From Gammaproteobacteria bacterium (lineage in GTDB: Bacteria; Pseudomonadota; Gammaproteobacteria; JABABF01): 64,000 nt of DNA. Location: the NCBI GenBank assembly GCA_965215045.1, contig OZ244031.1:1581961-1645960 (forward strand), written 5' to 3'. Shown here one piece after another: positions 628 through 57,897 of this stretch; within the stretch, counting starts at the first letter, position 1, and every line of letters starts with the position of its first letter. The notes beneath the pieces were generated by a model that had not been told where the DNA came from, ran no database searches, and was given only the letters and a program-made list of their open reading frames with translations. Made by a program: the position numbers and the translations under genes.

Positions 628-2616
628 ATGCACCTGTCCTGGCGTCTGCTCTGCGCCCTGTTACTTCTGGGTCCCGTTTTTCCCGCCGATGTCTTCGCCC
701 AGTATCCACCCCGTCCCTACCAGGTGACGGAGAAACGCGATCCCTGTCGCGACTACCAGGAGCAGAAGCAGCTGTTCTGGGGGGATACGCACGTGCACAC
801 GACTTTCTCCCTGGATGCCGGCATCCAGGATACCCGCAACCGGCCCGAAGATGCTTACCGTTATGCGCGGGGCGAGCGCCTGGGCCTGCAACCCTACGAT
901 GAACAGGGGCAACCGCTGCGTTTTTCGCAGTTGCGGGAGCCGTTGGACTTTAGCGTGATCAGCGATCACGCCGAGGCCCTGGGCATCGTCGGCGTTTGCA
1001 CCACGCCGGGGTACGAGGGCTATGACTCTTTTACCTGCAAGTCCTACAGGGATCGTCCCAGTCTCGCCTATTTCATGATGCTGCGCCTGCCGATCGGCAG
1101 CCGTTACCTGGCGAATCGTTACCCGTGGCTGGGTTTCCTGAGAAAACTGACGGACCGGGATGCGGGTCTGCCGTCCCTGTGCGGGGAGGGAGGCCGGGAT
1201 TGCCTGAAGATGGGCAGTGAGCGCTGGCAGCAGATCCAGGCGGCGGCGGAGGCGGCGTACGACCGCTCTTCCGCCTGCAACTTTACTTCTTTTGTCGGTT
1301 ACGAGTGGACCGGGGACACGGAGGTGAACCTGCACCGCAACGTGGTGTTCCGCAACCGCAATGTTCCGGCACACCCGGTCAGCTATGTCGATGTCGCCAC
1401 CCCCGAGGAGCTGTGGCAGACTTTCCAGCGCGACTGCCTGGATGCGGACAACGGCTGCGATGTGCTGGCCATCCCCCATAATTCCAACCTCAGTGACGGC
1501 CGGATGTTCCCGGACTGGAAGGGCGGGGCCGGGGATTACGGCCCGGAGCAGGCGCGCCTGCGCGCCCGGGTCGAGCCGGTATTTGAAATCATGCAGCACA
1601 AGGGAGATTCGGAATGCTGGTACGGAGAGGGCGTCCAAGATGAACTGTGCGCCTTTGAAAAACTGCCCTATAACCTGTTTGCCGGGAGATTTTTCTCCCG
1701 TTTCCAGGAGCCGACCGAGCCGGGGGATGGCTATGCGCGGGGCATCCTGGCCCAGGGCATGCGTTACTGGCGGGGCATGGGTATCGATCCCTACCTGATG
1801 GGGTTTATCGGCAGCAGCGACACGCACCTGGGCACGCCGGGGGCGGTGGAGGAGGCGGACCACCAGGGGCATGGCGGTGCCGGCCGGGTGGAATTCGGGG
1901 AATTGCCGCAGGGGCTGCCCGATGACCTGGAGTTCAACCCCGGCGGGCTGGCGGCGGTGTGGGCCGAGGAAAACACGCGCGATGCGTTGTTTTCCGCGAT
2001 GCAACGGCGCGAGACGTACGGCACCAGCGGGCCGCGCATCCGACTGCGCTTTTTTGGCGGTTGGAATTATGATCCGTACTTGTGCAACCGGGGAATGCGC
2101 GACATAGTGGGCCAGGGCTATGCGCGCGGTGCGCCGATGGGCGGTGTCCTGGAGGAGAAACCCGGCGGCCGGCTGGGCTTCGTGATCGATGCCTGGCGCG
2201 CCTCCCGGAGCGCGCGCCTGCAGCAGGTGCAAATCATCAAGGGCTGGGTTGACGGGCGGGGCAATACCCGCGAAAAAATCTACCTGGCGGCGGGCGACCC
2301 CGAGAATGGTGCCAGCGTGGACCCGGTGAGCTGCCAGACGCAGGGCAGCGGCTATGACCGCCTGTGCAAGGTGTGGCAGGACCCGGATTTCAAGCGCGGG
2401 CAACAGGCGTATTACTATGCGCGGGTGGTGGAGAACCCGAGTTGCCGCTGGAGTGCGCGCGTATGCAGTGCGCACCAGGTCGACTGCGAGCAGCCCGGGA
2501 CCATCCCCGAGGGGCTTGCGGGCTGCTGTGCGCCGGAACACCGGCCGGTGGTCCAGGAGCGGGCCTGGAGTTCGCCGATCTGGTATCGTCCCGCCGCCGC
2601 CCGGGCGCAGCCTTGA
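628..2616 (+). CDS. Secreted DUF3604-like protein (PHP-type metal-dependent hydrolase fold), paralog 1 of 4
   Basis: 662 aa with an N-terminal signal-like segment (LLCALLLLGPVFPADVFAQ). Shares motifs FWGDTHVHTTFS.D, DFSVISDHAE, IPHNSNLSDG, MQHKGDSECWYG, RETYGTSGPRIRLRFFGGW and a C-terminal Cys-rich CRWSARVC...VDC...GCCAPEHRPVVQERAWSSPIWY. Length and motifs fit DUF3604. Confidence 0.8.
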   Translation: MHLSWRLLCALLLLGPVFPADVFAQYPPRPYQVTEKRDPCRDYQEQKQLFWGDTHVHTTFSLDAGIQDTRNRPEDAYRYARGERLGLQPYDEQGQPLRFSQLREPLDFSVISDHAEALGIVGVCTTPGYEGYDSFTCKSYRDRPSLAYFMMLRLPIGSRYLANRYPWLGFLRKLTDRDAGLPSLCGEGGRDCLKMGSERWQQIQAAAEAAYDRSSACNFTSFVGYEWTGDTEVNLHRNVVFRNRNVPAHPVSYVDVATPEELWQTFQRDCLDADNGCDVLAIPHNSNLSDGRMFPDWKGGAGDYGPEQARLRARVEPVFEIMQHKGDSECWYGEGVQDELCAFEKLPYNLFAGRFFSRFQEPTEPGDGYARGILAQGMRYWRGMGIDPYLMGFIGSSDTHLGTPGAVEEADHQGHGGAGRVEFGELPQGLPDDLEFNPGGLAAVWAEENTRDALFSAMQRRETYGTSGPRIRLRFFGGWNYDPYLCNRGMRDIVGQGYARGAPMGGVLEEKPGGRLGFVIDAWRASRSARLQQVQIIKGWVDGRGNTREKIYLAAGDPENGASVDPVSCQTQGSGYDRLCKVWQDPDFKRGQQAYYYARVVENPSCRWSARVCSAHQVDCEQPGTIPEGLAGCCAPEHRPVVQERAWSSPIWYRPAAARAQP

Positions 2617-2633
2617 GAACCGCAGCGTATTGA

Positions 2634-4673
2634 ATGGGCGTGAGCGTCCATTGTCGTGCTGCGGTGTTCCGGCGTTATTGCCGGGGCCAGGGGGTACTGG
2701 TACTGCTGTTGGCAACCGGCACCTGGCTTCCCCTGCCGGTGGCGGCACAAGCGGCACCGGAGCGTCCCTACCGGGTCACCGAGGAGCGCGCCCCGTGCCG
2801 CGACTACCGTCCGCAAAAACAGCTGTTCTGGGGGGATACCCACGTGCACACGGCGTTCTCTGTCGATGCGGGCCTGCAGGACACCCGCAACCGGCCGGCA
2901 GATGCCTACCGCTATGCCCGGGGCGAGCGCCTGGGACTGCAACCGTACGATGAGCAGGGGCGCCCGCTGCGTTTTTCGCAGTTGCGGGAACCGCTGGATT
3001 TCACCGTCGTCAGCGACCATGCCGAAAATTTGGGCATGGTCGCCGTGTGCACGACACCGGGTTACAAGGGGTATGACTCCTTCACCTGTACCTCCTTCAG
3101 AAAACGACCGCGTCTGTCCTATTTTTTCAGTGCCGGCATGACGCTGGGCAGCCGCTACCTGGCCGAGCGTTACTCGTGGCTGGGTTTCCTGGGAAAACTG
3201 ACGGACCCGAACCGGCCACCGCCGGCCCTGTGCGGGGAGGACGGCCGGGACTGCCGGCAATTGCGCCGGGCCCGCTGGCGGCAGATCCAGGAAGCGGCGG
3301 AGGCGGCCTATGATCGCAGCCCCGCCTGCAGTTTCACTTCTTTTGTCGGTTACGAGTGGACCGGGAACGAGGCGGTGAACCTGCACCGCAACGTGATCTT
3401 CCGCAATCGCAATGTCACGGAGCGGCCGATCAGTTACATGGATGAGAGTACCCCGGAGAAGTTGTGGCAGGCCCTGCAAAGCGAGTGCCTGGAGGCGGGC
3501 AAGGGCTGTGACGTGCTGGCCATTCCGCATAACTCCAATCTCAGTGACGGCCAGATGTTCCGGCCCTGGACGGGCGGTGCCGGCGATTACAGCCCGGGGC
3601 AGGCGCGCCTGCGCGTGCGCATCGAACCGATGTTCGAGATCATGCAACACAAGGGCGATGCGGAATGCTGGTACGGGGTGGGAGTCCGGGATGAATTCTG
3701 CGCCTTTGAAAAGCTGCCCTACGATCGCTTCGTCGGCCGGTTTTTCCGCGGTCTGCGCGAGCATCCCGAACCCCGCGATGGCTATGCGCGGGACATCCTG
3801 GCCCAGGGCATGCGCTATTTTCGGGGCATCGGCGTCGATCCCTACCAGGTGGGTTTTATCGGCAGCAGCGATACGCACCTGGGCACGCCGGGGGCGGTGG
3901 AGGAGACCGGCCACCAGGGCCACGGCGGTGCCGGCAAGATGAGTTTTGGCGAAGTGCAGCCGGGTCTGCCGGATGACCTGGAGTACAACCCCGGCGGACT
4001 GGCGGCGGTGTGGGCGGAGGAGAATACGCGCGATTCGCTGTTTGCGGCACTGCGTCGGCGCGAGGCCTACGGCACCAGCGGGCCGCGCATCCGGCTGCGT
4101 TTTTTCGGCGGCTGGAACTATGACCCGCAGCTGTGCAGCCGTGAGCTGCGGGAACTGGTCGCCCAGGGCTATGCGCGGGGTGCGCCGATGGGCGGCGTCC
4201 TGGAGGCGGCAGCGGACGGTGCGCGCCCGGGTTTCGTGGTCGATGCCTGGCGCGCCGCCGGCGGGGAGGATGCACCGCTGCAGCAGCTGCAGATCATCAA
4301 GGGTTGGCTCGATGCCCGGGGCCGGGCGCAGGAAAAAATCTACACGGTGGCGGGCGATCCTGACAACGGGGCCGGCGTGGACCTGGCGACGTGTCGGAGA
4401 CGGGGCAGCGGCTATGACCGCCTGTGCCAGGTGTGGCAGGACCCCGATTTCGAGAGCGGGCAGCAGGCGTATTATTACGCGCGGGTGCTGCAGAACCCGG
4501 GCTGCCGCTGGAGTGCGCACATCTGCGCAGCGCATCAAGTTGACTGCAAACGGCCCCAGACCATCACCGAGGGCCTGGAGGGCTGCTGTGCACGGGAGCA
4601 CCGGCCGGTGATCCAGGAGCGGGCCTGGAGTTCGCCGATCTGGTATCGTCCCGCCGCCCGGGCCGCGCGCTGA
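2634..4673 (+). CDS. Secreted DUF3604-like protein, paralog 2
   Basis: 679 aa, same conserved blocks as paralog 1 (FWGDTHVHTAFSVD, DFTVVSDHAE, IPHNSNLSDG...). Signal-like N-terminus ends VAAQAA. Starts 18 nt after paralog 1. Confidence 0.8.
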   Translation: MGVSVHCRAAVFRRYCRGQGVLVLLLATGTWLPLPVAAQAAPERPYRVTEERAPCRDYRPQKQLFWGDTHVHTAFSVDAGLQDTRNRPADAYRYARGERLGLQPYDEQGRPLRFSQLREPLDFTVVSDHAENLGMVAVCTTPGYKGYDSFTCTSFRKRPRLSYFFSAGMTLGSRYLAERYSWLGFLGKLTDPNRPPPALCGEDGRDCRQLRRARWRQIQEAAEAAYDRSPACSFTSFVGYEWTGNEAVNLHRNVIFRNRNVTERPISYMDESTPEKLWQALQSECLEAGKGCDVLAIPHNSNLSDGQMFRPWTGGAGDYSPGQARLRVRIEPMFEIMQHKGDAECWYGVGVRDEFCAFEKLPYDRFVGRFFRGLREHPEPRDGYARDILAQGMRYFRGIGVDPYQVGFIGSSDTHLGTPGAVEETGHQGHGGAGKMSFGEVQPGLPDDLEYNPGGLAAVWAEENTRDSLFAALRRREAYGTSGPRIRLRFFGGWNYDPQLCSRELRELVAQGYARGAPMGGVLEAAADGARPGFVVDAWRAAGGEDAPLQQLQIIKGWLDARGRAQEKIYTVAGDPDNGAGVDLATCRRRGSGYDRLCQVWQDPDFESGQQAYYYARVLQNPGCRWSAHICAAHQVDCKRPQTITEGLEGCCAREHRPVIQERAWSSPIWYRPAARAAR

Positions 4674-4677
4674 GTCG

Positions 4678-6693
4678 ATGCGCCGGTCCCCGCAGCTCCT
4701 GCCGCAAGGGAGTGTCCTGGTACCGCTGTTGGCGGCCTGTGCCTGTGCCGTCCTGCCGGTTGCAGCGCAGTCACCGGAGCGGCCGTACGCGCTCACCGAG
4801 GCGCGCGAGCCCTGCCGCGATTACCGCCCGCAAAAACAGCTGTTCTGGGGCGATACCCACGTGCATACGGCTTTTTCCTTCGATGCCGGCATCTATGGAA
4901 CCCGCAACCGGCCGGAAGATGCCTACCGCTATGCCCGCGGCGAGCGCCTGGGATTGCAGCCCTACGATGCGCAGGGCCGGGCACTGCGTTTTTCGCAATT
5001 GCGGGAACCGCTGGATTTCACCGTGGTCAGCGACCATGCCGAAGGTCTGGGCATTGCGGGTGTTTGCGGCGTGCCGGGCTACGAGGGCTATGACTCCTTC
5101 ACCTGCACCTCCTACAGGGAACGGCCGCGTCTTGCGCGTTTCCTGATGTTGCAACTCCCGCTCATTCGCCGCCACCTGGCCGAGCGTTACTCGTGGCTGG
5201 GTTTTCTGAAAAGACCGGAGGTCCGGGTGCGAGAGCCGCCCGCCCTGTGCGGGGAGGGGGGCAGGGACTGCCTGCAGGGCGGCCGGGAAATCTGGCGGCA
5301 GATCCAGGAAGCGGCAGAGCGCGCCTACGACCGCACTTCCGCCTGCCGTTTCACTTCTTTTGTCGCTTATGAGTGGACCGGGGATACGCGGGTGAACCTG
5401 CACCGCAACGTGATCTTCCGCAACCGCGAGGTGCTGGCACGGCCGATCAGTTACCTGGATGCGCCTACCCCGGAGGAGTTGTGGCAGGGGCTCCAACGCG
5501 ATTGCCTGGATGCCGGCAACGGCTGTGACTTGTTGGCCATTCCCCACAATGCCAATCTCAGCGACGGCCAGATGTTCCGACCCTGGGAGGGCGATACAAG
5601 CGATGATGCCCTGGCCCGGGCGCAGCTGCGCGCCCGCATCGAACCGGTGTTGGAAATCATGCAGCGCAAGGGGGACTCGGAGTGCTGGTTCGGGGCGGGG
5701 GTAGAGGATGAATTCTGCGCCTTTGAGAAACTGCCCTACGATCGATTTGCCGGAAGAACCTTCCGCAGTCTCGGGGCAGCACCCGAACCCGGCGATGGCT
5801 ATGCGCGGGACATCCTGGCCCGGGGCATGCGCTATTTTCGGGGTCTCGGCGTCGACCCCTACCGGCTGGGTTTTATCGGCAGCACGGATACACACCTGGG
5901 CATTTCGGGGGCGGTGGAGGAGGGCGGCTACCAGGGGCATGGCGACCCCGGGAATACGATACTGGGAAAATTGCCGGCGGCGGGTCTGCCGGATGCCCTG
6001 GAGTACAACCCCGGGGGATTGGCGGCGGTGTGGGCGGAGGAGAATACGCGCGATTCGCTGTTTGCGGCACTGCGTCGGCGCGAGGCCTACGGCACCAGCG
6101 GGCCGCGCATCCGGCTGCGCTTTTTCGGCGGCTGGGACTATGATCCGCAGCTGTGCCAGCAAGGAGTGCAGCACCTGGTCGACCGGGGTTATGCGCAGGG
6201 TGTGCCGATGGGCGGTGTCCTGGAGCCGGCCATGGACGGTGCCCGCCCGGGTTTCGTGGTCGATGCCTGGCGGGCCGCCGGCGGGGAAAACGCACCGCTG
6301 CAGCAGCTGCAGATCATCAAGGGTTGGCTCGATACCCGGGGCCGGGCCCAAGAAAAAATCTACACCGTGGCGGGTGAGCCCCGAAACGGGGCCGGTGTGG
6401 ACCTGGCGACATGCCGGGGACGGGGCAGCGGCTATGACCGCCTGTGCCAGGTGTGGGAGGACCCCGATTTCGAGAGCGGCCAGCAGGCGTATTATTATGT
6501 GCGGGTGCTCCAGAACCCGAGCTGCCGCTGGAGTGCGCGCATCTGCAATGCGCACCGGGTCGACTGCCAGCGGCCCGGGACCATCACCGGGGGACTTGCG
6601 GGCTGCTGTGCACCGGAGCACCGGCCGGTGATCCAGGAGCGGGCCTGGAGTTCACCGATCTGGTATCGTCCCGTCGCCCGGGCACCACACTGA
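4678..6693 (+). CDS. Secreted DUF3604-like protein, paralog 3
   Basis: 671 aa, same blocks (FWGDTHVHTAFSFD, DFTVVSDHAE, IPHNANLSDG). Starts 5 nt after paralog 2. Confidence 0.8.
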   Translation: MRRSPQLLPQGSVLVPLLAACACAVLPVAAQSPERPYALTEAREPCRDYRPQKQLFWGDTHVHTAFSFDAGIYGTRNRPEDAYRYARGERLGLQPYDAQGRALRFSQLREPLDFTVVSDHAEGLGIAGVCGVPGYEGYDSFTCTSYRERPRLARFLMLQLPLIRRHLAERYSWLGFLKRPEVRVREPPALCGEGGRDCLQGGREIWRQIQEAAERAYDRTSACRFTSFVAYEWTGDTRVNLHRNVIFRNREVLARPISYLDAPTPEELWQGLQRDCLDAGNGCDLLAIPHNANLSDGQMFRPWEGDTSDDALARAQLRARIEPVLEIMQRKGDSECWFGAGVEDEFCAFEKLPYDRFAGRTFRSLGAAPEPGDGYARDILARGMRYFRGLGVDPYRLGFIGSTDTHLGISGAVEEGGYQGHGDPGNTILGKLPAAGLPDALEYNPGGLAAVWAEENTRDSLFAALRRREAYGTSGPRIRLRFFGGWDYDPQLCQQGVQHLVDRGYAQGVPMGGVLEPAMDGARPGFVVDAWRAAGGENAPLQQLQIIKGWLDTRGRAQEKIYTVAGEPRNGAGVDLATCRGRGSGYDRLCQVWEDPDFESGQQAYYYVRVLQNPSCRWSARICNAHRVDCQRPGTITGGLAGCCAPEHRPVIQERAWSSPIWYRPVARAPH

Positions 6694-6703
6694 GGATCAT
6701 GTA

Positions 6704-8725
6704 ATGATGAATCGACATTCGCATCCCCTGCCGCTGAGCGGTATCTCGGTACTGCTGCTGGGGGCGTTCGCCTGGGCCTCCCCGCCGCTTGCAGCACAGG
6801 CACCGGAGCGGCCGTACACGATCACCGAGGAGCGCGAGCCCTGCCGCGATTACCGTCCGGAAAAACAGGTGTTCTGGGGCGACACCCACGTGCACACCGC
6901 GTACTCTTTTGACGCCTCTATGTGGGACACGCGCAATGACCCGGACGACGCCTACCGCTTCGCCCGGGGCGAGCCGGCGGGCATCCTGCCGTATAGCGAA
7001 CAGGGCGAGGCACAGCGCTGGGTGCAATTGCCCCGGCCGCTGGATTTTGCCATGGTCTCCGACCATGCCGAGCACCTGGGGCGCATCGATATCTGCGCGC
7101 GCAAAGACCTGCTGGGGTACTATTCGATCAACTGCAGGATCTTTCGCGGCCGCCCGCAACTGAGCTTTTTCACCAACCTGGCGATGCCGCTGATTCTGAA
7201 GGAACTCACGCTGCAGAACGATAATTGGCGCTTCCTGAAAAAGTTGTTTCGCGCCGAACAACCGCCGCTGTTCTGCGGCCCTGACAACCGGCGCTGTTAC
7301 GAAGCCGCGCGGCCGGTCTGGAAGCGCATCCAGGCGGCGGCGGAGCGCGCTTACGATCGCAGCACCGCCTGCCGTTTTACTTCTTTTGTCGGCTATGAAT
7401 GGACCGCCTACACCGGCGGCAATATTCATCGCAACGTGGTGTTCCGCAATGAGCGGGTGCCGGCGGACCCGATCAGTGCCAACGAGGCCCCCGAGGCTCC
7501 CGGGCTGTGGCGGGCCTTGGATCGCGAGTGCATCCAGGGGGTTCCCGGTTGCGATGTGCTGGTCATCCCGCACAACAGTAACGTGAGCCGGGGGCTGATG
7601 TTCCCCGACCCGGGCGGGGAGCGCACCGCACCGCACAACCCGCGCACCGCGGTGCTGAGTGCCCGTTTTGATCGCCTGTTCGAGATCATGCAGCACAAGG
7701 GCGATTCCGAGTGCTGGTACGGACAGGGGATCGCCGATGAACTGTGCGCCTTTGAGAAGCTGAGTTACGACGCCCTGGGTGCCCAGATCAGCCCGCGCTT
7801 TGCCATCCCCAGTCATCCCAGCGATGGTTTCCTGCGCCCCGTGCTGTCGTCGGGCCTGGTCTACCAGCGGCAATTCGGCGTCAATCCCTACCGCCTGGGC
7901 GTGATCGCGAGCACGGACAATCACCTGGGCACGCCGGGTTCGGTCGAGGAATACAATTTTGTCGGGCACACGGGCATCTCTGCCAACAGGAATTTCCAGA
8001 ACATGAGTGCCGGTCTGCGCCTGCCGGATTCGCCGAACTTCAATCCCGGCGGGCTGGCGGCGGTGTGGGCGGAAGAGAATACGCGCGACTCGCTGTTTTC
8101 TGCGATGCGCCGCCGCGAGACGTACGGCACCAGCGGCCCGCGGCTCGAGGTGCGCTTTTTCGGCGGTTGGAACTATCCCGCAGACTTGTGTCGCAACCCC
8201 GACTGGGTGAAGGAGGCGTATGCGGGCGGGGTGCCGATGGGCGGTGTCCTGGCCGCGGATGCCGCACTCGGAACCGCCGCTGCACCGCGCTTTTTGCTGT
8301 ATGCGCGTCGCGACCCGGGTGTCGCCGGGCATCCGGGTCTGCCGCTGCAATACATGCAGCTTATCAAGGGCTGGGTAGATGAGCGGGGCACCGCACAGGA
8401 GAAGGTCTACGACGTCGCCGGCAACCCCGACAGCGAGGCCGGGGTGGACAGTGACTGTCGGCCGCACGGTGCGGGATACCAGCGGCTGTGCCAGGTGTGG
8501 AGCGACCCGGACTTTGATGCGGGGCGCGATGCCTGGTACTACGCGCGCGTGTTGCAGAATCCGAGCTGCCGCTGGAGTGCTCGCTGGTGCAGTGCGCAGG
8601 GGGTGAACTGCGAGGATCCGGCATCGGTTCCCGCGGGCATGGAAGCCTGTTGTGCAGCGGATCATCGCCGGGTGATCCGGGAGCGGGCCTGGACTTCGCC
8701 GATCTGGTACCAGGCGCAGCCGTGA
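6704..8725 (+). CDS. Secreted DUF3604-like protein, paralog 4 (most divergent)
   Basis: 673 aa with the same core motifs (FWGDTHVHTAYSFD, DFAMVSDHAE, IPHNSNVSRG, MQHKGDSECWYG, C-terminal CCAADHRRVIRERAWTSPIWY). Signal-like N-terminus. Confidence 0.8.
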   Translation: MMNRHSHPLPLSGISVLLLGAFAWASPPLAAQAPERPYTITEEREPCRDYRPEKQVFWGDTHVHTAYSFDASMWDTRNDPDDAYRFARGEPAGILPYSEQGEAQRWVQLPRPLDFAMVSDHAEHLGRIDICARKDLLGYYSINCRIFRGRPQLSFFTNLAMPLILKELTLQNDNWRFLKKLFRAEQPPLFCGPDNRRCYEAARPVWKRIQAAAERAYDRSTACRFTSFVGYEWTAYTGGNIHRNVVFRNERVPADPISANEAPEAPGLWRALDRECIQGVPGCDVLVIPHNSNVSRGLMFPDPGGERTAPHNPRTAVLSARFDRLFEIMQHKGDSECWYGQGIADELCAFEKLSYDALGAQISPRFAIPSHPSDGFLRPVLSSGLVYQRQFGVNPYRLGVIASTDNHLGTPGSVEEYNFVGHTGISANRNFQNMSAGLRLPDSPNFNPGGLAAVWAEENTRDSLFSAMRRRETYGTSGPRLEVRFFGGWNYPADLCRNPDWVKEAYAGGVPMGGVLAADAALGTAAAPRFLLYARRDPGVAGHPGLPLQYMQLIKGWVDERGTAQEKVYDVAGNPDSEAGVDSDCRPHGAGYQRLCQVWSDPDFDAGRDAWYYARVLQNPSCRWSARWCSAQGVNCEDPASVPAGMEACCAADHRRVIRERAWTSPIWYQAQP

Positions 8726-14688: not shown

Positions 14689-15999
14689 TTATGCAGGCAG
14701 GTGGACGCCGCTGTGGAGGGCGTCGGCAATGGCCCGGCCGATGCGCCGCAGGTCTTCCTCGCCGATGGGATAGGGGGGCATGGTGTAGACCAGCCGCCCG
14801 AAAGGACGCAGCCAGACCCCGCCCTCCACCAGCGCATTTTGCAGGGCTGCGGGGTGTGCCGGTGCCTGTTCCAGTTCGACCACGCCGACGGCACCCAGGC
14901 AGCGCACATCCGCCACCCCGGGCAACTCCCCGAGCGGCATCAGCTCTTCCCGGAGAATGGTTTCCACGTTCTGTACCCGCTGCCGCCAGGGACTTTGCAG
15001 CAGCAGTTCGATGCTGGCCGAGGCCACGCTGCAGGCCAGCGGGTTGGCCATGAAGGTCGGCCCGTGCATGAGCGGCTGGCCCTGCGGTCCGCACACTTCG
15101 GCGGCAATTTCATCGCTGCACAGCACCGCCGCCAGGCTCAAGTAGCCGCCGGTGAGCGCCTTGCCCACGCAGAGAATATCGGGGCTGACCCCGGCGTGCT
15201 CGGCGGCGAACAGGGTGCCGGTGCGCCCGAAGCCGGTGGCGATCTCATCGAGAATCAGCGGCGTCTCGCAGCGGGTGCAGAGTGAGCGCACCCGCTGCAG
15301 GTATTCCGCGGAATAGGTCCACATACCGCCGGCCCCCTGCAGGATCGGTTCCAGCACCACCGCGGCGATCTCTTCCCGATGCGCAAGGAGCAGGCCTTGC
15401 AACTCTCGAATGTGCGCGTCCGTGCAGGACAGGCCGAAACGCGGGGCGGGTCGCGGTGCAAACAGGTGCCCGGCGACGACCCCGGGAAACAGTGCGTGCC
15501 CGCCCTGTTCCGGGTCCGAGATCGCCAGGGCACCGAAGGTGTCGCCGTGATAGGCACCGCGCACGCTGAGCAGGCGTCCGGGGCGGCCGTCTTGCGGCCG
15601 GCGATGCCGGTGGCGCTGCAAGACCATCTTGATCGCCACTTCCATGGCCACCGAACCGGAATCACAGAAAAACACCTTTTGCAGTGCCGCGGGACACACG
15701 GACAGCAATTGTTCGGCGAGCCGCACCGCCGGCTCGTGCGTCAGGCCGCCGAACATCAGGTGCGCCATGGAACGCAGCTGTTCATGCACGGCCGCATCCA
15801 ACTGCGGCACCGCGTACCCATGGATGGCCGCCCACCAGGAGGACATGCCGTCCACCAGTTCGCGTCCATCGGCGAGTTGCAGGCGCACGCCGGAGGCCGA
15901 AACTACCGGCAGGGCGTCGGCCCCGCCCATGCTTGCGTAGGGATGCCAGAGATGGCGACGGTCGAAGGCGAGCAGGGCCTCGCGGTCCGCTTGGGGCAT
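14689..15999 (-). CDS. bioA: Adenosylmethionine-8-amino-7-oxononanoate aminotransferase
   Basis: 436 aa. The N-terminus LAFDRRHLWHPYASM...VDGMSSWWAAIHGY is typical of BioA. Class-III aminotransferase motifs present. Confidence 0.85.
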   Translation of the reverse strand: MPQADREALLAFDRRHLWHPYASMGGADALPVVSASGVRLQLADGRELVDGMSSWWAAIHGYAVPQLDAAVHEQLRSMAHLMFGGLTHEPAVRLAEQLLSVCPAALQKVFFCDSGSVAMEVAIKMVLQRHRHRRPQDGRPGRLLSVRGAYHGDTFGALAISDPEQGGHALFPGVVAGHLFAPRPAPRFGLSCTDAHIRELQGLLLAHREEIAAVVLEPILQGAGGMWTYSAEYLQRVRSLCTRCETPLILDEIATGFGRTGTLFAAEHAGVSPDILCVGKALTGGYLSLAAVLCSDEIAAEVCGPQGQPLMHGPTFMANPLACSVASASIELLLQSPWRQRVQNVETILREELMPLGELPGVADVRCLGAVGVVELEQAPAHPAALQNALVEGGVWLRPFGRLVYTMPPYPIGEEDLRRIGRAIADALHSGVHLPA

Positions 16000-16010: not shown

Positions 16011-17003
16011 TCAGCCCGGGAGAAGCCTCTGCATCGTGTCGCGCTCCGCAGTCAGTTCGGCGACGCTCTGTTCCAACATCCGGCGACTGAATTCATTGAT
16101 TTCCAGTCCCTGGACAATCTCCCATTCACCGGCGTGACAGCGCACGGGAAAAGAACAGACCAGGCCTTCCTCCACCCCGTAACTGCCGTCGCTGACCACT
16201 CCCATGCTGACCCAGTCGTCCTCTTGCGTGCCCTGCATCCAGTCCCGTATATGATCGATGGCCGCATTGGCCGCAGAGGCGGCACTCGATGCACCGCGTG
16301 CTGCAATCACCCGTGCCCCCCGCTGTTGTACCTGGGGGATCATGGTGTCGCGGTACCAGTCTTCCTCCACCTGGGACAGGGCGGGTTGCCCGCGCACCCG
16401 GGCGTGATGCAGATCGGGGAATTGCGTCGAGGAATGGTTGCCCCATATAGTGAGGCGGTGTACGTCCTGCACCCGGGCACCGCTGTGTGCTGCCAGCATG
16501 GCAGCGGCCCGGTTATGGTCCAGGCGCGTCATGGCGGTGAATTGCCGGGGTGAAATGCCCGATGCGTGTGTGTAGGCGGCAAAGGTGTTGCTGTTGGCGG
16601 GATTGCCGATCACCAGGACCCGCACAGAAGGCGAAGCCGCGGCGGCGATGGCGCGTCCCTGTTGGATGAAAATCTGCGCATTTTTCTCCAGGAGTTCACT
16701 GCGTTCCATCCCCGGGCCGCGGGGAAAAGCACCCGGGAGAAGGATGTACTGGCTGTTGTCGAAGGCCTCTTCGGCGTCGCTGCTGTAATGGACACTGTGC
16801 AACAGGGGGAAGGCGCAATCGACCAACTCCATGCAGACGCCTTCCAGGCTTTCCATGGCCTGGGGGATTTCCAGTAATTGCAGGGCGACGGGTTGCTCCT
16901 CGCCCAGCATGTCCCCGGCGGCGATGCGAAACAGCAGGCTGTAACTGATCTGCCCGGCGGCACCGCTGACGGCGACGCGGGCGACTTCAGGGTTCTCCCC
17001 CAT
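16011..17003 (-). CDS. mdh: Malate dehydrogenase (LDH-like MDH family)
   Basis: 330 aa with N-terminal [24 protein letters not shown]-binding and MDH signature regions. Confidence 0.85.
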
Positions 17004-17042: not shown

Positions 17043-17477
17043 TCAGCGTTGTGCTTCTTCGGGAGCGACGCCGACGATCAGCGTGGAAACGCCCAGCCTG
17101 GCGTCCAAGCGCGCCTTGGTACGTTGCGCTTCCCGGGGGCTCATGTCCCTGCCCACGTAGAGGGCGAAGGAATCGGGATTGAGCCGTTCTATGTAAGCCT
17201 CATAGCCCGAAGTGCTGAGATCTTGACGCACCTTGCGGGCGACATCGCGTCCCGCCCGCGAATAAGTGCTGACGCGTACCCGGATATTTTGCAGGTTCTC
17301 CAGCGATTGCTCTTGCGTTGCCGACCGTGTGGGTCCGGCAGCGCGTTCGCTCGCAGGCGACAGACCGGGCATCTGGAAGTCCTCCAGTATGGCGCAGGCA
17401 CCCAGGGACGCCGCTCCCAGGAGAATTACAGATGCCGACAGTATGCGAACGCCGGATACGGAACTCTGATTCTTCAT
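17043..17477 (-). CDS. Lipoprotein with C-terminal SPOR-like domain
   Basis: 144 aa. Lipobox LGAC and a C-terminal RVRVSTYSRAGRDVARKV...ALYVGRDMSPREAQRTKARL resembling SPOR peptidoglycan-binding repeats. Confidence 0.45.
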   Translation of the reverse strand: MKNQSSVSGVRILSASVILLGAASLGACAILEDFQMPGLSPASERAAGPTRSATQEQSLENLQNIRVRVSTYSRAGRDVARKVRQDLSTSGYEAYIERLNPDSFALYVGRDMSPREAQRTKARLDARLGVSTLIVGVAPEEAQR

Positions 17478-17561
17478 AACTCTGCTCCTATGGTGATATT
17501 GCAGAAAAAACCTTCTTAATCATAGCAAAATAAAAACTTTTTGACATCCCCCTGAAAATAC

Positions 17562-17790
17562 GCCCATCGTGGCCCCCGCGTACGGGGGCGATGAATGCTT
17601 GGGAGCAGCGCGCACCGGGGCCGCCCATCGTGGCCCCTGCGTACGGGGGCGATGAATGCTTGGGAGCAGCGCGCACCGGGGCCGCCCATCGTGGCCCCTG
17701 CGTACGGGGGCGATGAATGCTTGGAAGCAGCGCGCACCGGGGCCGCCCATCGTGCGCCCCCGCGTACGGGGCACGGGCGACCCGGTACCG
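17562..17790. repeat. 61-bp tandem direct repeat, 3 full copies plus 1 partial
   Basis: Unit GCCCATCGTGGCCCC(C/T)GCGTACGGGGGCGATGAATGCTTGGGAGCAGCGCGCACCGGGGCC starts at 17562, 17623, 17684 and 17745. Each unit holds the hairpin GCCCCCG-CGTA-CGGGGGC. Confidence 0.9.
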
Positions 17791-17924
17791 CAGGATGCGC
17801 TTGCCGGCCCGGCTCTGCAGGTGGGTGCGGTGCGTGGCAGATGACACCCGGGGAGCTTGCACATTGCCCGCCATCCCGGCGGGCGGGCTTGCTAAAATAA
17901 ACATTTTTGCCACTTGCGCCCATG

Positions 17925-18449
17925 TATCACGGCGACGATGAATCCTGGATGCGCCGCGCCCTGCAACTGGCGGAGCGTGCCGCCACCGCCGGCCAGGTGC
18001 CGGTCGGTGCCGTGGTGGTGCGGGACGGCGAGGCGGTCGGGGAGGGCTGGAACCGCCCGGTCCAGGCCACGGACCCGACCGGGCATGCGGAAATTATCGC
18101 CCTGCGCGCCGCCGGTCGGCGTCTGCGGAACTACAGGTTGCCCGGCTGCATTCTCTACGTGACGGTGGAACCTTGTGCGATGTGTGCCGGTGCCCTGGTG
18201 CACGCGCGCATCGCCCGCCTGGTATTCGGCACCCGGGAACCGCGCGCCGGTGCAGTCGCAAGCCGCTTGCAACTGTTGGACCAGGAGCACCTGAATCATC
18301 GCGTACCGTGGGAGGAGGGTCTGCTGGCACAGAGGGCGGCCGGACTGATGCGCGACTTTTTTCGCCTGCGGCGCCGGGATGCCCGGGATGCCCGTCACAC
18401 GGGGGGGCCTGCCGCACTGGGTCTGGATTGTTCCGGGGCACCGACGTGA
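17925..18449 (+). CDS. tadA: tRNA-specific adenosine deaminase
   Basis: CDA-fold motifs HAEIIAL and TVEPCAMCAGAL. Start chosen at MYHGDDESWMRRALQLA. Confidence 0.85.
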   Translation, partial: YHGDDESWMRRALQLAERAATAGQVPVGAVVVRDGEAVGEGWNRPVQATDPTGHAEIIALRAAGRRLRNYRLPGCILYVTVEPCAMCAGALVHARIARLVFGTREPRAGAVASRLQLLDQEHLNHRVPWEEGLLAQRAAGLMRDFFRLRRRDARDARHTGGPAALGLDCSGAPT

Positions 18450-21400
18450 CAACCGGGGGGCGGACCCTGTTGTGTTTCAGGGGCGCCGCTGCACGGTCCG
18501 ACTTTCGTCTGCGCCGCTTGTTGGAAGCCCCGGAAGCCGCCGCCGTCGGCCTGGAGACCCTGGAGGCGCACTACCTGTACTTCGCCCTGTTCTACACGCC
18601 GCCGTCGGCAGAGCAGCGGCAGCAGCTCATCGAATGCCTGGGAGGGACGACGTCCGGAGACGCTGAAGAGGCGGAAGCCCGGGCGCGGGAAGATGAGTTT
18701 TTTTTCCTGGTCACTCCCCGGGCCGGAACCGTGTCTCCCTGGTCGAGCAAGGCACGGGATATCCTGCACAATTGCGGTCTGTACGAGATTTTGCGCTTGG
18801 AACAGGGCGTGGCCTGGCGCGGGCGCTGTGCTGCGAACGCGGACTGTGAGACGCTCTGGCCCCTGCTGCACGATCGCATGGTGGAGACGGTGCACCGCGG
18901 CCTCGCCGAGGCGGAATCCCTGTTCACCGAGTCTGCGCCCCGTCCGCTGCGGCACATCCCGGTCCTGGAGGGCGGGAAGGAGGCCCTGGATGCCATCGAT
19001 GCAGAGCTGGGGCTGGCCCTGAGTGAGGCGGAGCGGGCCTACCTGTTGCAGGCCTTCGGCGAACTGGGACGCGAGCCCACGGATGCGGAGTTAATGAGTT
19101 TTGCCCAGGTGAATTCCGAACACTGCCGGCACAAGATCTTCAATGCGCGCTGGAAGCGCAACGGCACCCTGGAGCCCCGTTCCCTGTTTGCGATGATTCG
19201 CAACACCATGGATTGTTCGGGCGCGGGGGTGCTGAGTGCCTACGAAGACAATGCGGCGGTGTTCGAGGGCAACCGCGCCCTGCGTTTTTTCCCGGGGGTG
19301 GAAGGGGAGTATCGCAGCGTCCGGGAAGCAGCACCGTTGTTGATCAAGGCGGAGACGCACAATCATCCCACTGCCATTGCGCCTTTCCCGGGCGCCGGTA
19401 CCGGCATCGGCGGGGAACTGCGCGATGAGGCGGCGGTTGGACAGGGTGCCCGCTTCAAGATGGGTCTCTGCGGTTTCAGTGTCTCCCATCTGCGCATTCC
19501 CGGCTATCCGCAGCCCTGGGAGGGGGCCCCGCGCCACCCCCCGCATATCGCCTCCCCGCTGGAGATCATGTTGCAAGGGCCCATTGGCGGTGCCGCCTTC
19601 GGCAATGAATTCGGACGCCCGAACCTGTGCGGCTATTTTCGCAGCTTCGAAATGGAGCGCGATGGCAAGCATTACGGCTACCATAAGCCGATCATGCTGG
19701 CCGGCGGGCTGGGTGCAGTGCGCCCGCAGCACCTGCGTTCCCGGGCACTGCCGGAGAACAGCGAGGTGGTGGTGCTGGGCGGCCCGGCATTGATGCTGGG
19801 ACTGGGTGGCGGGGCGGCCTCTTCACTCGCTTCCGGTGCTGAGCGTCGGGAATTGGATTTCATGTCGGTGCAGCGCCAGAACCCGGAAATGCAACGCCGC
19901 TGCCAGGAGGTGATCGATCGCTGCTGCGCCCTGGGAGCAAACAGCCCGATCGGGCTGCTGCACGATGTCGGTGCCGGCGGCCTGGCCAATGCGCTGTCGG
20001 AACTGGCGCGCGAGGTCGGCGGCGTGCGCGTGGAATTGCGCGCACTCCCCAGCGATGACCCGGCGATGTCGCCACTGGAATTGTTGTGCAACGAGTCCCA
20101 GGAACGCTTCGTGTTGGTACTGAAACCGGGGGGGCGTGCGGCATTCAGCAGGATCTGCGACCGGGAGTGCTGTCCCTGGGCCATCATCGGCAAGACCGGG
20201 GGCGACGCTTTTCATGTGCGGGATGCATTGTTTGACCAGGTTCCGGTCGATCTGCCGCTGTCCCTGCTGTTCGACACCCCGCCCATCCCCGCGCGGACAC
20301 TGGTTGAAACCACCGTCCCCGCACCCGGGGCCCGTTCTGAAACCGGGCCCGATTTGCGCGTGGCGGTGGAGCGGGTGCTGCGCTTTCCCGCCGTGGCCGC
20401 CAAGGACTTCCTGGTCACGATCACCGACCGCAGCGTGGGCGGTATGGTCTGCCGCGACCAAATGGTCGGCCCCTGGCAGACGGCGGTGGCGGATGCGGCC
20501 CTGTGTTGCGACGATTTCACCGGCTTTGGCGGTGCCGCGATGGCGATGGGCGAACGCAGTCCGCTGGCGGTGTACGATGCACCCGCGGCAGCGCGCATGG
20601 CAGTGGGCGAGGCACTGACCAACCTGGCCGGGGTGGAGATCGGCTCCCTGGGGGAGGTGCGCCTGTCGGCGAACTGGATGGCGGCGGCGGGCGACGCCCG
20701 GGAGGAGGAAAATCTGTTTCGCGCCGTGCACAGCCTGGGCATGGAATTGTGTCCGCCACTGAAGATCGCCATCCCGGTCGGCAAGGACTCCCTGTCCATG
20801 CGCACGGCGTGGCGACAGGGAGACGAGGAGTGCGAGGTGATTGCGCCGCTGTCCGTGGTGATCTCCGCCTTCGCCCGGGTGCGCGAGTTGCGTACCGCCC
20901 TGACGCCGCAACTTCTGCCCGCCGGCGGCGACTTGTTCCTGCTCGACCTGGGAGGGGGGCAGGATCGCCTGGGCGGTTCCTGCCTGGCGCAGGTTTTCGG
21001 CGGCGAATGGGGGCCGCCGCCCGACCTGGACTCCGCAGCGCGTCTGCGCGGGGCCTGGGAGGCAATACAGGCATGCGTGGCCCGGGGCCTGCTCAGTGCC
21101 TGTCATGATCGCTCAGACGGCGGCTTGCTGGTCGCTGCCCTGGAGATGGCTTTTGCCGGACGCTGTGGTTTGGAACTGGAGTTGCCCGCAGACAGGGAAG
21201 TGATGCCGGGCCTGTTCAGCGAAGAACTGGGCCTGTTGTTGCAGGTGCCGGCGGTGCACGAGCGGGCGGTGCGTGATCATTTCATCACTGCCGGCCTGGG
21301 AGACTGGCTGCAGCGCATCGGTGGCTGCACCGGGGAAAATACAGTGCAGATCCGGCATCGGGGCGAGCTGCTGTTCCGGGAATCGCGCAGCGTGTTGCAG

Positions 21401-22327
21401 ACTTGGTGGCGGGAGACCAGTTATCGGCTGCAATCCCTGCGGGACCATCCCGGGTGCGCCGCAGAGGAGTACGCGGCCCTGGCGGATGAAGAGGACCCGG
21501 GCCTGCAGTGGCAGCCGGGTTTTAGTCCCCAGGCTCCCGCCCTGGGCGGTGCCCGTCCCCCCTTGGCGATCCTGCGCGAGCAGGGCGTCAACGGGCAGTA
21601 CGAGATGGCGGCGGCCTTTGATCGCGCGGGATTTCGCTGTATCGACGTGCATACCAGTGAACTGCTCTACGGCAAAAGACACATCAGGGATTTTTGTGGA
21701 CTGGCGGTGTGCGGTGGATTTTCCTACGGCGACGTGTTCGGTGCCGGGCGGGGCTGGGCACAGACCATTCTCGCGCATGAGCGGCTGCGCGAGGAATTCC
21801 GCGACTTTTTTCATGACCCCGGGACCTTCAGCTTCGGCGTCTGCAACGGCTGCCAGATGCTCTCGCTGTTGCGCGAACTGATCCCCGGCAGTGCGGGGTG
21901 GCCGCTGTTCACCGGCAATCGCTCCGAGCAGTTTGAAGCGCGCCTGGTGATGGTCGAAGTCCCGGATTCCTCTTCTGTATTGCTGGCGGGCATGGCCGGT
22001 GCCCGCCTGCCGGTCCCGGTGGCGCACGCCGAGGGCCGGGTGCAATTCGGTGCGGGCGATAGCCTGGAGGAACTTGCGCGCAGTCGCCGGGTCGCACTGC
22101 GTTACGTGGACAACCGGGGGGCGGTTACCGAGCACTACCCCTGTAATCCCAACGGTTCGGAAGGCGGGTTGACCGGCGTCAGCAGTGCCGATGGCCGGGT
22201 CACCCTGATGATGCCGCATCCCGAACGCGCTTTCCGGTGCCTGCAATTTTCCTGGGCACCGCCCGCTGCGGAAGAGGAGAGCCCGTGGATGCAGCTGTTT
22301 TACAACGCCCGGCGTTTTGTCGCTTGA
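18446..22327 (+). CDS. purL: Phosphoribosylformylglycinamidine synthase (single-chain large PurL)
   Basis: About 1293 aa from GTG 18446, which overlaps the tadA stop (GTGA). N-terminal PurS-like region, FGAM synthetase domains and C-terminal glutaminase (GVCNGCQM). The ORF-track upstream extension has no homology. Confidence 0.9.
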   Translation: MTTGGRTLLCFRGAAARSDFRLRRLLEAPEAAAVGLETLEAHYLYFALFYTPPSAEQRQQLIECLGGTTSGDAEEAEARAREDEFFFLVTPRAGTVSPWSSKARDILHNCGLYEILRLEQGVAWRGRCAANADCETLWPLLHDRMVETVHRGLAEAESLFTESAPRPLRHIPVLEGGKEALDAIDAELGLALSEAERAYLLQAFGELGREPTDAELMSFAQVNSEHCRHKIFNARWKRNGTLEPRSLFAMIRNTMDCSGAGVLSAYEDNAAVFEGNRALRFFPGVEGEYRSVREAAPLLIKAETHNHPTAIAPFPGAGTGIGGELRDEAAVGQGARFKMGLCGFSVSHLRIPGYPQPWEGAPRHPPHIASPLEIMLQGPIGGAAFGNEFGRPNLCGYFRSFEMERDGKHYGYHKPIMLAGGLGAVRPQHLRSRALPENSEVVVLGGPALMLGLGGGAASSLASGAERRELDFMSVQRQNPEMQRRCQEVIDRCCALGANSPIGLLHDVGAGGLANALSELAREVGGVRVELRALPSDDPAMSPLELLCNESQERFVLVLKPGGRAAFSRICDRECCPWAIIGKTGGDAFHVRDALFDQVPVDLPLSLLFDTPPIPARTLVETTVPAPGARSETGPDLRVAVERVLRFPAVAAKDFLVTITDRSVGGMVCRDQMVGPWQTAVADAALCCDDFTGFGGAAMAMGERSPLAVYDAPAAARMAVGEALTNLAGVEIGSLGEVRLSANWMAAAGDAREEENLFRAVHSLGMELCPPLKIAIPVGKDSLSMRTAWRQGDEECEVIAPLSVVISAFARVRELRTALTPQLLPAGGDLFLLDLGGGQDRLGGSCLAQVFGGEWGPPPDLDSAARLRGAWEAIQACVARGLLSACHDRSDGGLLVAALEMAFAGRCGLELELPADREVMPGLFSEELGLLLQVPAVHERAVRDHFITAGLGDWLQRIGGCTGENTVQIRHRGELLFRESRSVLQTWWRETSYRLQSLRDHPGCAAEEYAALADEEDPGLQWQPGFSPQAPALGGARPPLAILREQGVNGQYEMAAAFDRAGFRCIDVHTSELLYGKRHIRDFCGLAVCGGFSYGDVFGAGRGWAQTILAHERLREEFRDFFHDPGTFSFGVCNGCQMLSLLRELIPGSAGWPLFTGNRSEQFEARLVMVEVPDSSSVLLAGMAGARLPVPVAHAEGRVQFGAGDSLEELARSRRVALRYVDNRGAVTEHYPCNPNGSEGGLTGVSSADGRVTLMMPHPERAFRCLQFSWAPPAAEEESPWMQLFYNARRFVA

Positions 22328-27292: not shown

Positions 27293-28399
27293 ATGGCGCG
27301 GCGGACCGGCAAGGATTCTTTTTTTCGCTTCCTGGCGGGCGGCGCGCGGAAAAAAAGAAGGGCACACGGTGCGCGGCAGTCCCGCGCAAGCGCGGCCGCC
27401 AAGCGCGTCTCTGCGCGGCGTCGCCAGGTCCGTCGCGCACATACCCGGGTCTCCGTCCCGGGTTTTTCCTCCAGGTTCCTGGCCTGGCTGCGACATCATA
27501 GTGCTTCGCTGGGCGATGGCCTGTACCGCCTGGGAAGCCAGCCCGTACCCACCCTGTTGAATTGCCTGGGGATCGGTATTGCACTCGCCCTGCCGCTGCT
27601 GCTCTACCTGGGCTTGGACAACCTGCAGAGGTTGAGTCATGACTGGGACCAGGGGGGTGGCATTTCCGTGTTTTTGCGTTCCGATATCGATGCGGATGCC
27701 GGTGAGCGGCTGGCGGAACGGGTTCGTTCCTGGAGGGGTGTGGGTGCCGTGCGCTACCAGGGCCGGTCGGAGTCCCTGGCGGAATTCCGCAGCTGGTCGG
27801 GTCTGGGGGATGTCCTGGATGGTCTCAGGGAAAATCCGCTGCCGCCGCTGCTGATCGTTCTGGCTGCAGATGTGGCACCGGAAGCCAACGTACTGGAACG
27901 CCTGCGCTTGGAACTGGATGCCCTGCCGGAGGCCGACAGTGCCCGCGCCGACCTGGAATGGGTGCGCCGGCTGCATGAGTTCACCGTGCTGGCACAGCGC
28001 ATGGTTTTTGCCCTGGCGGCCCTGCTGGGATTCGGTGCCCTGCTGGCGGTGGTCAACAATACCCGCCTGATGATCGTCGGTCGCCGCGAAGAGATCGTGG
28101 TAGTCAAGCTGGTGGGCGGCACCGTCGCCTACGTGCGGCGTCCTTTTCTCTATTGCGGGCTGCTGTACGGACTGGGAGGTGCCGCCATGGCCTGGTTGCT
28201 CAGCACGGCCGGCATTGCCTGGCTGAAACAGCCGGTGCAGAACCTGGCGGACTTGTATGGCAGTGATTTCGTGATTGAGGGATTATCCTGGCGCTATGTG
28301 CTGTTGTTGTTCGGCGGTATGGCACTGCTGGGTCTGTCCGGTGCATGGCTGGCGGTGGTGCGCTACATCGAGAGCATTGAAATCGACTTCGATCACTGA
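27293..28399 (+). CDS. ftsX: Cell division permease FtsX (Arg-rich N-terminal extension)
   Basis: Four C-terminal TM helices with a periplasmic loop. Immediately follows ftsE. Confidence 0.8.
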   Translation: MARRTGKDSFFRFLAGGARKKRRAHGARQSRASAAAKRVSARRRQVRRAHTRVSVPGFSSRFLAWLRHHSASLGDGLYRLGSQPVPTLLNCLGIGIALALPLLLYLGLDNLQRLSHDWDQGGGISVFLRSDIDADAGERLAERVRSWRGVGAVRYQGRSESLAEFRSWSGLGDVLDGLRENPLPPLLIVLAADVAPEANVLERLRLELDALPEADSARADLEWVRRLHEFTVLAQRMVFALAALLGFGALLAVVNNTRLMIVGRREEIVVVKLVGGTVAYVRRPFLYCGLLYGLGGAAMAWLLSTAGIAWLKQPVQNLADLYGSDFVIEGLSWRYVLLLFGGMALLGLSGAWLAVVRYIESIEIDFDH

Positions 28400-28585
28400 G
28401 GGAACTTGAGCGAGGCCGCGGGGGAGCGCGCGGTGATTTGACGGCACTGTTTTCTTGGGGAACTGCGGGGGAGCACGCGGTGATTTGACGGCACTGCTTT
28501 CTTGGGGAACTGCGGAGGAGTGCGCGGTGATTTGACGACTGCCTCCCTGGGAAACTGCGGGGGAGCGCACTGCCGGAGGGGGGTG
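28400..28585. repeat. About 47-bp imperfect tandem repeat, 3 copies plus 1 partial, between ftsX and comEC
   Basis: Copies start near 28400, 28457, 28504 and 28549. Shared core GGGAACTGCGGGGGAGCRCGCGGTGATTTGACGRCACTG. Confidence 0.8.
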
Positions 28586-40234: not shown

Positions 40235-40308
40235 GGCTGGATGGCAGAGTGGTTATGCAGCGGACTGCAACTCCGTGTACGCCGGTTCGATTCCGACTCC
40301 AGCCTCCA
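40235..40308 (+). tRNA. tRNA-Cys (anticodon GCA)
   Basis: Acceptor GGCTGGA/TCCAGCC plus TCCA. Anticodon arm GCGGA-CTGCAAC-TCCGT, T-loop TTCGATT. One C-A mismatch in the T stem. Confidence 0.8.
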
Positions 40309-40328
40309 TATTTGCCGCGCTCTCTAAG

Positions 40329-40512
40329 CAGGGGGGAGTGGAAAGCAGAGGGGGAGTGGAAAGCAGAGGGGGAGTGGAGAGCAGGGGGGGAGTGGAGAGC
40401 AGGGGGGAGTGGAGAGCAGAGGGGGAGTGGAAAGCAGAGGGGGAGTGGAGAGCAGAGGGGGAGTGGAAAGCAGAGGGGGAGTGGAAAGCAGAGGGGGAGT
40501 GGAGAGCAGGGG
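40329..40512. repeat. 18-bp G-rich tandem repeat, about 11 copies, between tRNA-Cys and tRNA-Leu
   Basis: Unit GGGGGAGTGGA(A/G)AGCAGA, with occasional 17/19-bp variants. The G5-7 runs recur every 18 nt on the + strand. Confidence 0.9.
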
Positions 40513-40596
40513 GAGCATGAAAACAGCATGCCGGGCGGGTGGTTTGATTTTCCTGGCACCGGTGATGAGAGGCACAAGAGTAGCCTGGCAGTGAAC

Positions 40597-40683
40597 GCCC
40601 GGGTGGCGAAATTGGTAGACGCAGGGGACTTAAAATCCCCGGACTTGCAAGTCATGTCGGTTCGAGTCCGGCCCCGGGCACCA
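40597..40683 (+). tRNA. tRNA-Leu (anticodon TAA), long variable arm
   Basis: 87 nt, GCCCGGG...CCCGGGC-ACCA. Anticodon arm GGGGA-CTTAAAA-TCCCC. Same cysT-leuZ order after pgsA as in E. coli. Confidence 0.9.
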
Positions 40684-40741
40684 GGAACGGGCGGGGAATG
40701 CTCCCCGGCTCGCAAGACCCCGGCTATATGATGCTGGCGTT

Positions 40742-41000
40742 GAGTATAGGGCTTGGGATTGGTTTATATATACGCTGTCGTTTAGTATAGGGCTAGGGAT
40801 TGGTTTATATATACGCTGTCGTTTAGTATAGGGCTAGGGATTGGTTTATATATACGCTGTCGTTTAGTATAGGGCTAGGAATTGGTTTATATTATTCTAT
40901 CGTTTAGTATAGGGCTAGGGGTTGGTTTATATTATTCTATCATTTAGTATAGGGCTTGGAATTGGTTTATATATACGCTATCGTTTAGTATAGATATTGA
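40742..41000. repeat. 41-bp AT-rich tandem repeat, about 6.5 copies
   Basis: Unit GTTTAGTATAGGGCTAGGGATTGGTTTATATATACGCTGTC at 40742, 40780, 40821, 40862, 40902 and 40942, with a partial copy to about 41000. Copies 4-5 carry the variant TATTATTCTATC. Confidence 0.9.
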
Positions 41001-57790: not shown

Positions 57791-57841
57791 GTGCGGCCAG
57801 GAGCTGCAACGGGCGTCAGTTTGCCCCGTATAATAAATAAG

Positions 57842-57875
57842 TGCCCCGCCCGGTTGCGGGGCATTTTTGCCTCGA
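57842..57875 (+). terminator. Second hairpin plus T-run (tandem terminator or 5'-UTR attenuator of the FmdB gene)
   Basis: TGCCCCGC-CCGGTT-GCGGGGCA followed by TTTTTG, 23 nt upstream of the ATG at 57898. Confidence 0.55.
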
Positions 57876-57897
57876 ACTAGCGCGCGGATGCCCTGCC

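Follow-up and report, generated by a model that had tools for sequence, protein, structure and literature searches.

A 61-bp tandem array between divergent genes of an uncultured gammaproteobacterium is probably a young, lineage-specific intergenic minisatellite

In the 64-kb stretch of gammaproteobacterial DNA analysed in this study (referred to below as the window, representing ~3% of a ~2.08-Mb genome), positions 17561-17771 are occupied by tandem copies of a 61-bp unit, lying between a lipoprotein-like gene on the minus strand and tadA-purL on the plus strand. In our judgement the array is probably a young, lineage-specific intergenic minisatellite of the VNTR type, for which we infer an origin by slippage or unequal recombination and which is likely to be neutral and to have no dedicated function. 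A sequence-only reading of the same DNA had suggested a REP-like or iteron-like element and kept a neutral VNTR as its fallback, and it is the fallback that the evidence favours.

Results

The 61-bp tandem repeat is real, as the sequence-only reading had proposed, and is confirmed by two kinds of search. TRF reports a single array with a period of 61, 3.4 copies, 97% matches, no indels and a score of 392, while an internal repeat search of the window places the unit starts at 17561, 17622 and 17683, with 99% and 95% identity over 77 nt. A pattern search located each half of the unit at three places in the window, where shuffles gave an expectation of 0.00, which puts the array far beyond chance. 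The unit length falls in the 10–100 bp range of minisatellites, the copies being arranged head to tail and highly identical; the GC content of the array is 75%.

Three full units, to which no strand is assigned, are present at 17561-17621, 17622-17682 and 17683-17743, followed by a 28-nt partial unit at 17744-17771, giving 3.4–3.5 copies that are contiguous, without any spacer and all in direct orientation. An earlier estimate of 3.7 copies extending to 17790, with three perfect or near-perfect units and a degenerate fourth, was therefore right about the repetition and the three full units but not about the extent, since repeat homology stops at 17771 and the fourth copy consists solely of an A segment with one inserted nucleotide and a stem of 5 bp, after which the unique right flank begins. 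Each full unit is made up of a half named A or A' (28–29 nt), which carries a GC hairpin, and a half named B (32–33 nt, CGATGAATGCTTGGRAGCAGCGCGCACCGGGGC), which includes GATGAATGCTTGGGAGCAGCGCGCACC and neighbouring bases and whose first bases, GCGATGA, extend the palindrome of A. In unit 1, delimited by TRF and by the repeat and pattern searches, A' covers 17561-17589 and B 17589-17621.

The full units differ from each other at two positions, reading C/T/T at 17577, 17638 and 17699 and G/G/A at 17603, 17664 and 17725. A perfect hairpin, GCCCCCG-CGTA-CGGGGGC at 17572-17589, with its 7-bp stem GCCCCCG/CGGGGGC and a 4-bp extension, is found in unit 1 only; relative to it, units 2 and 3 have a C>T change and read GCCCCTG, which introduces a G.T position into the stem (17638 and 17699), so that two of the three full-unit stems carry a mismatch. 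The expectation of a 7-bp GC stem in every unit thus holds for the first unit and fails for the second, the third and the partial copy. GATGAATGCTTGGGAGCAGCGCGCACC, which had likewise been ascribed to every unit, occurs unchanged in units 1 and 2, with one mismatch in unit 3 (A at 17725) and not at all in the partial copy. Folding of the unit was no better than that of dinucleotide shuffles (z between -1.2 and +0.6), and folding of the whole spacer was unexceptional for its composition (z of -1.9 and -1.6).

The divergent intergenic location is borne out by the flanking open reading frames, 17043-17477 on the minus strand and tadA at 17922-18449 on the plus strand. The former encodes a 144-aa lipoprotein-like protein with a signal peptide, a lipobox (LGAC) and a weak SPOR-like C-terminus, and its previous description as a SPOR lipoprotein is upheld as far as the lipobox is concerned, the Pfam match to SPOR being sub-threshold (15.1 bits against a cut-off of 21; 20.7 bits for the orthologue P0003). 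Only three homologue clusters (P0001-P0003) were found among 5.8 billion proteins, all from the same small lineage, and the gene adjoining the array is almost an orphan. It is followed on the minus strand by mdh (16011-17003) and a class-III aminotransferase gene (14689-15999). On the other side, tadA was identified as a tRNA adenosine(34) deaminase gene by Pfam (PF14437/PF00383) and by the names of its homologue sources, its start being backed by an alignment showing N-terminal conservation with a 70% relative (L083), and it is overlapped at its stop codon by purL (18446-22327, plus strand), which encodes a 1293-aa FGAR amidotransferase according to Pfam and to the gene call in a second strain.

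The 444-bp spacer between the lipoprotein-like gene and tadA has three parts, namely an 83-bp stretch adjoining the lipoprotein-like gene (17478-17560, with 32% GC in a window of 64% GC), the array, which makes the spacer 183 bp longer, and a unique GC-rich sequence ending in TGCTAAAAT, 23 nt before the tadA start. A two-hexamer scan of 17300-18100 with the sigma-70 consensus found one promoter-like site, a putative sigma-70 promoter of the lipoprotein-like gene (17519-17547, minus strand), with a -35 hexamer ATGTCA (17547-17542), a 17-nt spacer and a TG-extended -10 hexamer TATGAT ending at 17519. Alignment shows that the positions of these hexamers are conserved in two relatives, as GTGTCA/TATGCT in L082 and ATGTAA/TATATT in L083. 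The array begins 14 bp upstream of this putative -35, and the units themselves contain no promoter-like hexamer pair detectable in the same scan, in which the sigma-70 consensus alone was used.

For tadA, a putative extended -10, TGCTAAAAT at 17890-17898 on the plus strand, is suggested by positional conservation ~120 bp downstream of the array; it was not called by the two-hexamer scan of 17300-18100. In L083 the block CTTGCTAAAATAAAC has a conserved counterpart, CTTGTTACAATAAAC, the remainder of the spacer being unalignable. Since both promoter-like blocks keep their positions in relatives and the rest of the spacer does not, the array would lie between two divergent core promoters. A separate 7-bp GC hairpin, GCCCGCC-ATCCC-GGCGGGC at 17866-17884, closely precedes the putative tadA -10; no T run follows it, and its sole Rfam match (CRISPR-DR28, E = 5.2) is noise.

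The source organism has rarely been sampled: only two contigs encode an identical TadA, and identity falls to 71–75% for the next-best homologue. Synteny of tadA and purL is common to Pseudomonadales-type Gammaproteobacteria, and the order mdh-lipoprotein-tadA was found in this small lineage only. Among GTDB species representatives tadA reaches at most 61–68% identity, and in none of them is it preceded by mdh and the lipoprotein gene, while the tadA homologues P0027 and P0005 are flanked by other genes or lie on contigs too short for the spacers to be compared.

The second strain of the same species (L001, GCA_964348175.1), with flank DNA 99.4–99.7% identical to that of the window, has an array with the same unit-specific variants, C in unit 1 and T in unit 2, and differs by a G in its last full unit where unit 3 of the window has an A. 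Sharing of the unit-specific variants indicates that the array is older than the split between the strains, and it has not been homogenised since; as these variants have been kept over ~0.5% strain divergence, the array is not obviously hypervariable. The short-read assembly of this strain is broken at the array by a scaffold gap of 100 N, and its flanks fit either the same copy number as in the window or a different one.

Three further relatives bear on the history of the locus. In L084, whose lipoprotein is 98% identical, the 534-bp contig stops just before the array. In L082 (lipoprotein 92% and Mdh 93% identical) the left flank leads into a single A-like segment, CGTCCATCGGCCGCCCCCGCAAACGGGG, and from there directly into a homologue of the right flank, without a B half and without an array; this is the only relative of the kind, its contig ends 66 nt after the A segment, and the tadA-side contig of its lineage was not found by a degenerate scan of metagenomes with a conserved 30-mer. 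The tail of the L082 contig aligns without gaps to the left flank joined to 17744 onward, scoring 36 as opposed to 17 for the window as it is, and, judging from this alignment, the partial fourth copy is orthologous to the lone A segment of L082. There is consequently a length polymorphism between lineages, with at least three units in the window and L001 versus a single A without B in L082. A locus that two strains share, that consists of one A segment in a 92% relative and that disrupts short-read assembly is VNTR-like, much as had been anticipated.

L083 has a complete lipoprotein-tadA spacer containing neither A nor B, and no component of the array seems to be conserved beyond the species. 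At the position of the array this relative has a 24-bp duplication of its own, in two copies 79% identical and unrelated to the 61-bp unit (363-410 in plus-strand coordinates of the locus), just upstream of the lipoprotein -35, though two matching copies of such length could arise by chance. On the tadA strand each of its copies contains a DnaA-box-like word (AATCCACAT and TTTCCACAT).

Neither the complete unit nor A or B alone recurs elsewhere in the 64-kb window, even with three mismatches allowed, and a blastn-short search of the unit against the window returned only 12-mers with E of at least 0.07; within these 64 kb (~3% of the genome) the repeat is specific to its locus, as expected of a minisatellite. 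The hairpin motif is found upstream of no other gene in the window, and when its loop is left free there is one extra match (23208), where chance alone would give 1.4. Genome, metagenome and viral contig collections, scanned for exact words, gave no match to the unit, these public collections containing no data from this species and hence being uninformative as to its dispersal in its own genome. By blastn there was no match to plasmids or phages, and Rfam gave none at gathering thresholds, the best sub-threshold E of at least 3.7 being noise.

Several possible sources of the unit were considered and rejected. A resemblance to the 5' end of tadA (ACGGCGACGATGAATCCT at 17929, 83% similar) is attributable to chance, as 1.8% of the 100-nt segments of the window score as well when all of them are compared by Smith-Waterman alignment. 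Comparison of B with the right flank, of which it might be a diverged copy, gave a score within the bulk of the null distribution, and in other parts of the window nothing beyond the 12-mers already mentioned resembles B.

Discussion

According to the minisatellite explanation, the ancestral spacer would have contained a single 28-nt GC-rich quasi-palindromic A segment just upstream of the lipoprotein promoter. An A-B-A arrangement would then have arisen in the lineage of this species, and the 61-bp A+B unit may have been amplified to three copies through unequal recombination of sister chromosomes or through slippage in replication; slippage would be favoured by the GC hairpin of each unit, at which the nascent strand could stall or become misaligned. 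Plain tandem duplication of the ancestral sequence fails to account for the first A-B-A step, because B is not derivable from the flanks or from the window. Extension of the A palindrome by GCGATGA would be compatible with a template switch at the quasi-palindrome, which is speculation. The state of L082 fits a gain in the lineage of the window or a collapse by A-A recombination in that of L082, both of which are ordinary minisatellite dynamics. The 14 bp separating the array from the putative -35 were counted against neutrality, an effect on expression being plausible at this distance.

The main rival, which we consider unlikely, is an effect of copy number on the lipoprotein promoter. As a regulatory repeat upstream of promoters, the array would tune or phase-vary the SPOR-like lipoprotein gene or tadA-purL through its number of units, either because the units carry binding sites, for instance the inverted repeat GCCCCNG-N4-CGGGGGC for a dimeric regulator, or because they alter spacing or curvature upstream of the lipoprotein promoter. 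The MIRU-VNTR loci of Mycobacterium tuberculosis are comparable intergenic tandem repeats. For the promoter tandem repeats (PTRs) of the same species, which have units of 54–58 bp containing the promoter and lie 12–29 bp from the gene, copy-number variation, phase variation and effects on expression have been documented (PMC12817950). Our array resembles both in having intergenic head-to-tail units of ~50–60 bp close upstream of genes in a GC-rich genome, in being hard for short-read assembly and in being present or absent, or variable in length, between related lineages. Proximity to the putative -35, an inverted repeat in each unit, retention of unit order in two strains and the independent duplication at the same spot in L083 would also be in keeping with regulation. 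The likeness to PTRs ends with the units, since those of M. tuberculosis are themselves promoter sequence and those described here have no promoter-like hexamers, lie upstream of the core promoter and show no sequence similarity to PTRs. It also counts against a regulatory role that the 92% and 70% relatives have retained these genes and core promoters but have no array, that no other gene in the window has the hairpin motif upstream, that the comparison of L001 with the window, given the gap within the L001 array, demonstrates no difference in copy number, and that the putative tadA -10 is as far as ~120 bp away.

A wider version of the same idea concerns the minisatellites of the genome as a whole. 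With TRF (minimum period 15, minimum copy number 2.5, minimum score 150), five minisatellites were counted in the 64 kb of the window, four of them non-coding, whereas tadA-centred loci from 80 other species (L002-L081), 632 kb in all and analysed with the same settings, had none, a difference that points to a genome-wide mutational tendency rather than to a design specific to this locus. Young minisatellites might accordingly be unusually frequent throughout the genome and some of them might act as contingency loci, the unit number making expression of the envelope lipoprotein heritably switchable in the present case, a proposal that we regard as rather improbable. Were it true, the number of units would set the distance or the dosage of binding sites upstream of the lipoprotein promoter.

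The other arrays of the window are varied in composition and setting. At 28418-28568 there is a non-coding minisatellite with a 47-bp unit (GCGGGGGAGCGCGCGGTGATTTGACGGCACTGCTTTCTTGGGGAACT, 3.3 copies, 87% identity), which begins 19 bp past the stop of the open reading frame 27293-28399, ends ~78 bp before an ATG at 28646 and contains the word TTGACG in each unit. Two non-coding arrays, at 40326-40513 and 40725-40993, are situated around the tRNAs 40235-40305 and 40597-40680 in a region of 59% GC, one with a G-rich 18-bp unit (AAGCAGAGGGGGAGTGGA, 10.6 copies) and the other with an AT-rich 41-bp unit (6.6 copies). A coding 30-bp repeat of ~12 copies (58165-58514) specifies the 10-aa repeat RAGERGDGAS in a 250-aa protein (57841-58593, plus strand), which has an N-terminal CxxC...CxxC zinc-ribbon-like motif and is encoded directly upstream of an aspartyl-tRNA-synthetase-like open reading frame (58593-60371). 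On a different scale, four tandem segments of ~2.02–2.06 kb, 64–90% identical, occupy ~697-8700 just after a tRNA (458-530) and look like a tandem array of paralogous genes.

Membership in a dispersed family of REP/BIME-like or MITE-like palindromes that happens to be clustered here is very unlikely. REPs occur in tens to hundreds of dispersed copies, in clusters alternating in orientation and mostly between convergent or co-directional genes. The GC-rich imperfect palindrome in each unit and the intergenic position are reminiscent of REP/BIME elements of enterobacteria and pseudomonads, which are sometimes clustered, and unit 1 has a stem-loop of the REP type with its 7-bp GC stem, whose fold is not above shuffles. 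The lack of a local source for B would fit imported sequence, and the search for further copies covered 3% of the genome, leaving room for a low-copy family. The REP-like label of the sequence-only reading is nevertheless not supported: the unit is unique in the 64 kb even with three mismatches, where blastn-short returned only 12-mers and the free-loop hairpin was no more frequent than by chance, it has no exact match in the public genome, metagenome and viral collections, and its copies are strictly tandem, direct and exactly contiguous, unlike BIME clusters, whose members alternate in orientation and are separated by linker motifs, and placed between divergent promoters instead of at the 3' ends of genes. 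BrickBuilt, a MITE of Porphyromonas gingivalis, has a 23-nt unit, a leader and a tail with inverted-repeat ends, 19 copies per genome and promoter activity of its own (PMC4596501). Like BrickBuilt, the present array is a species-specific intergenic minisatellite without spacers near promoters, but neither its unit length nor its leader and tail, multiple copies or promoter features were seen here, and terminal inverted repeats and other MITE-type ends are absent, the array being bounded directly by sequence orthologous to L082.

It is highly improbable that the array is part of a structured RNA, such as a tadA-purL leader or a small RNA, or of a small repeat protein. Stop-free frames of 101–141 aa do cross it in several frames, and with the T variant of units 2 and 3 a G.U pair is preserved in RNA of the plus strand only; these frames are however expected at 75% GC, have no Pfam match and would be shifted in each unit, 61 not being a multiple of 3, while Rfam offered nothing better than E = 3.7, the folding z-scores were not significant, the sequence is not conserved in relatives and the conserved putative tadA -10 lies downstream of the array.

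Iterons, to which the sequence-only reading had also likened the array, are 17–22 bp long, bind a Rep protein encoded nearby and are accompanied by DnaA boxes. An interpretation of the array as iterons of a replication origin (of a plasmid or secondary chromosome) or of a plasmid remnant, which its direct repeats beside the AT-rich stretch 17478-17560 might recall, is effectively refuted by a unit about three times too long, neighbours (mdh, the lipoprotein gene, tadA and purL) that include no rep or par genes, the absence of DnaA boxes (TTWTNCACA) from the window, a GC skew that is positive throughout it with no switch near 17.5 kb, the lack of any plasmid match, and the fact that the AT-rich stretch corresponds to the conserved lipoprotein promoter and 5' leader in relatives that have no repeats.

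Conclusions

As it stands, the array has little significance beyond that of a lineage-specific marker, which could be used to type strains of this uncultured organism and which explains why short-read assemblies break at this point. If the number of units does control the promoters of the lipoprotein gene or of tadA-purL, it would represent a promoter VNTR with long units outside the mycobacteria, and the density of minisatellites would matter if it reflects a specific defect or mechanism of replication or repair.
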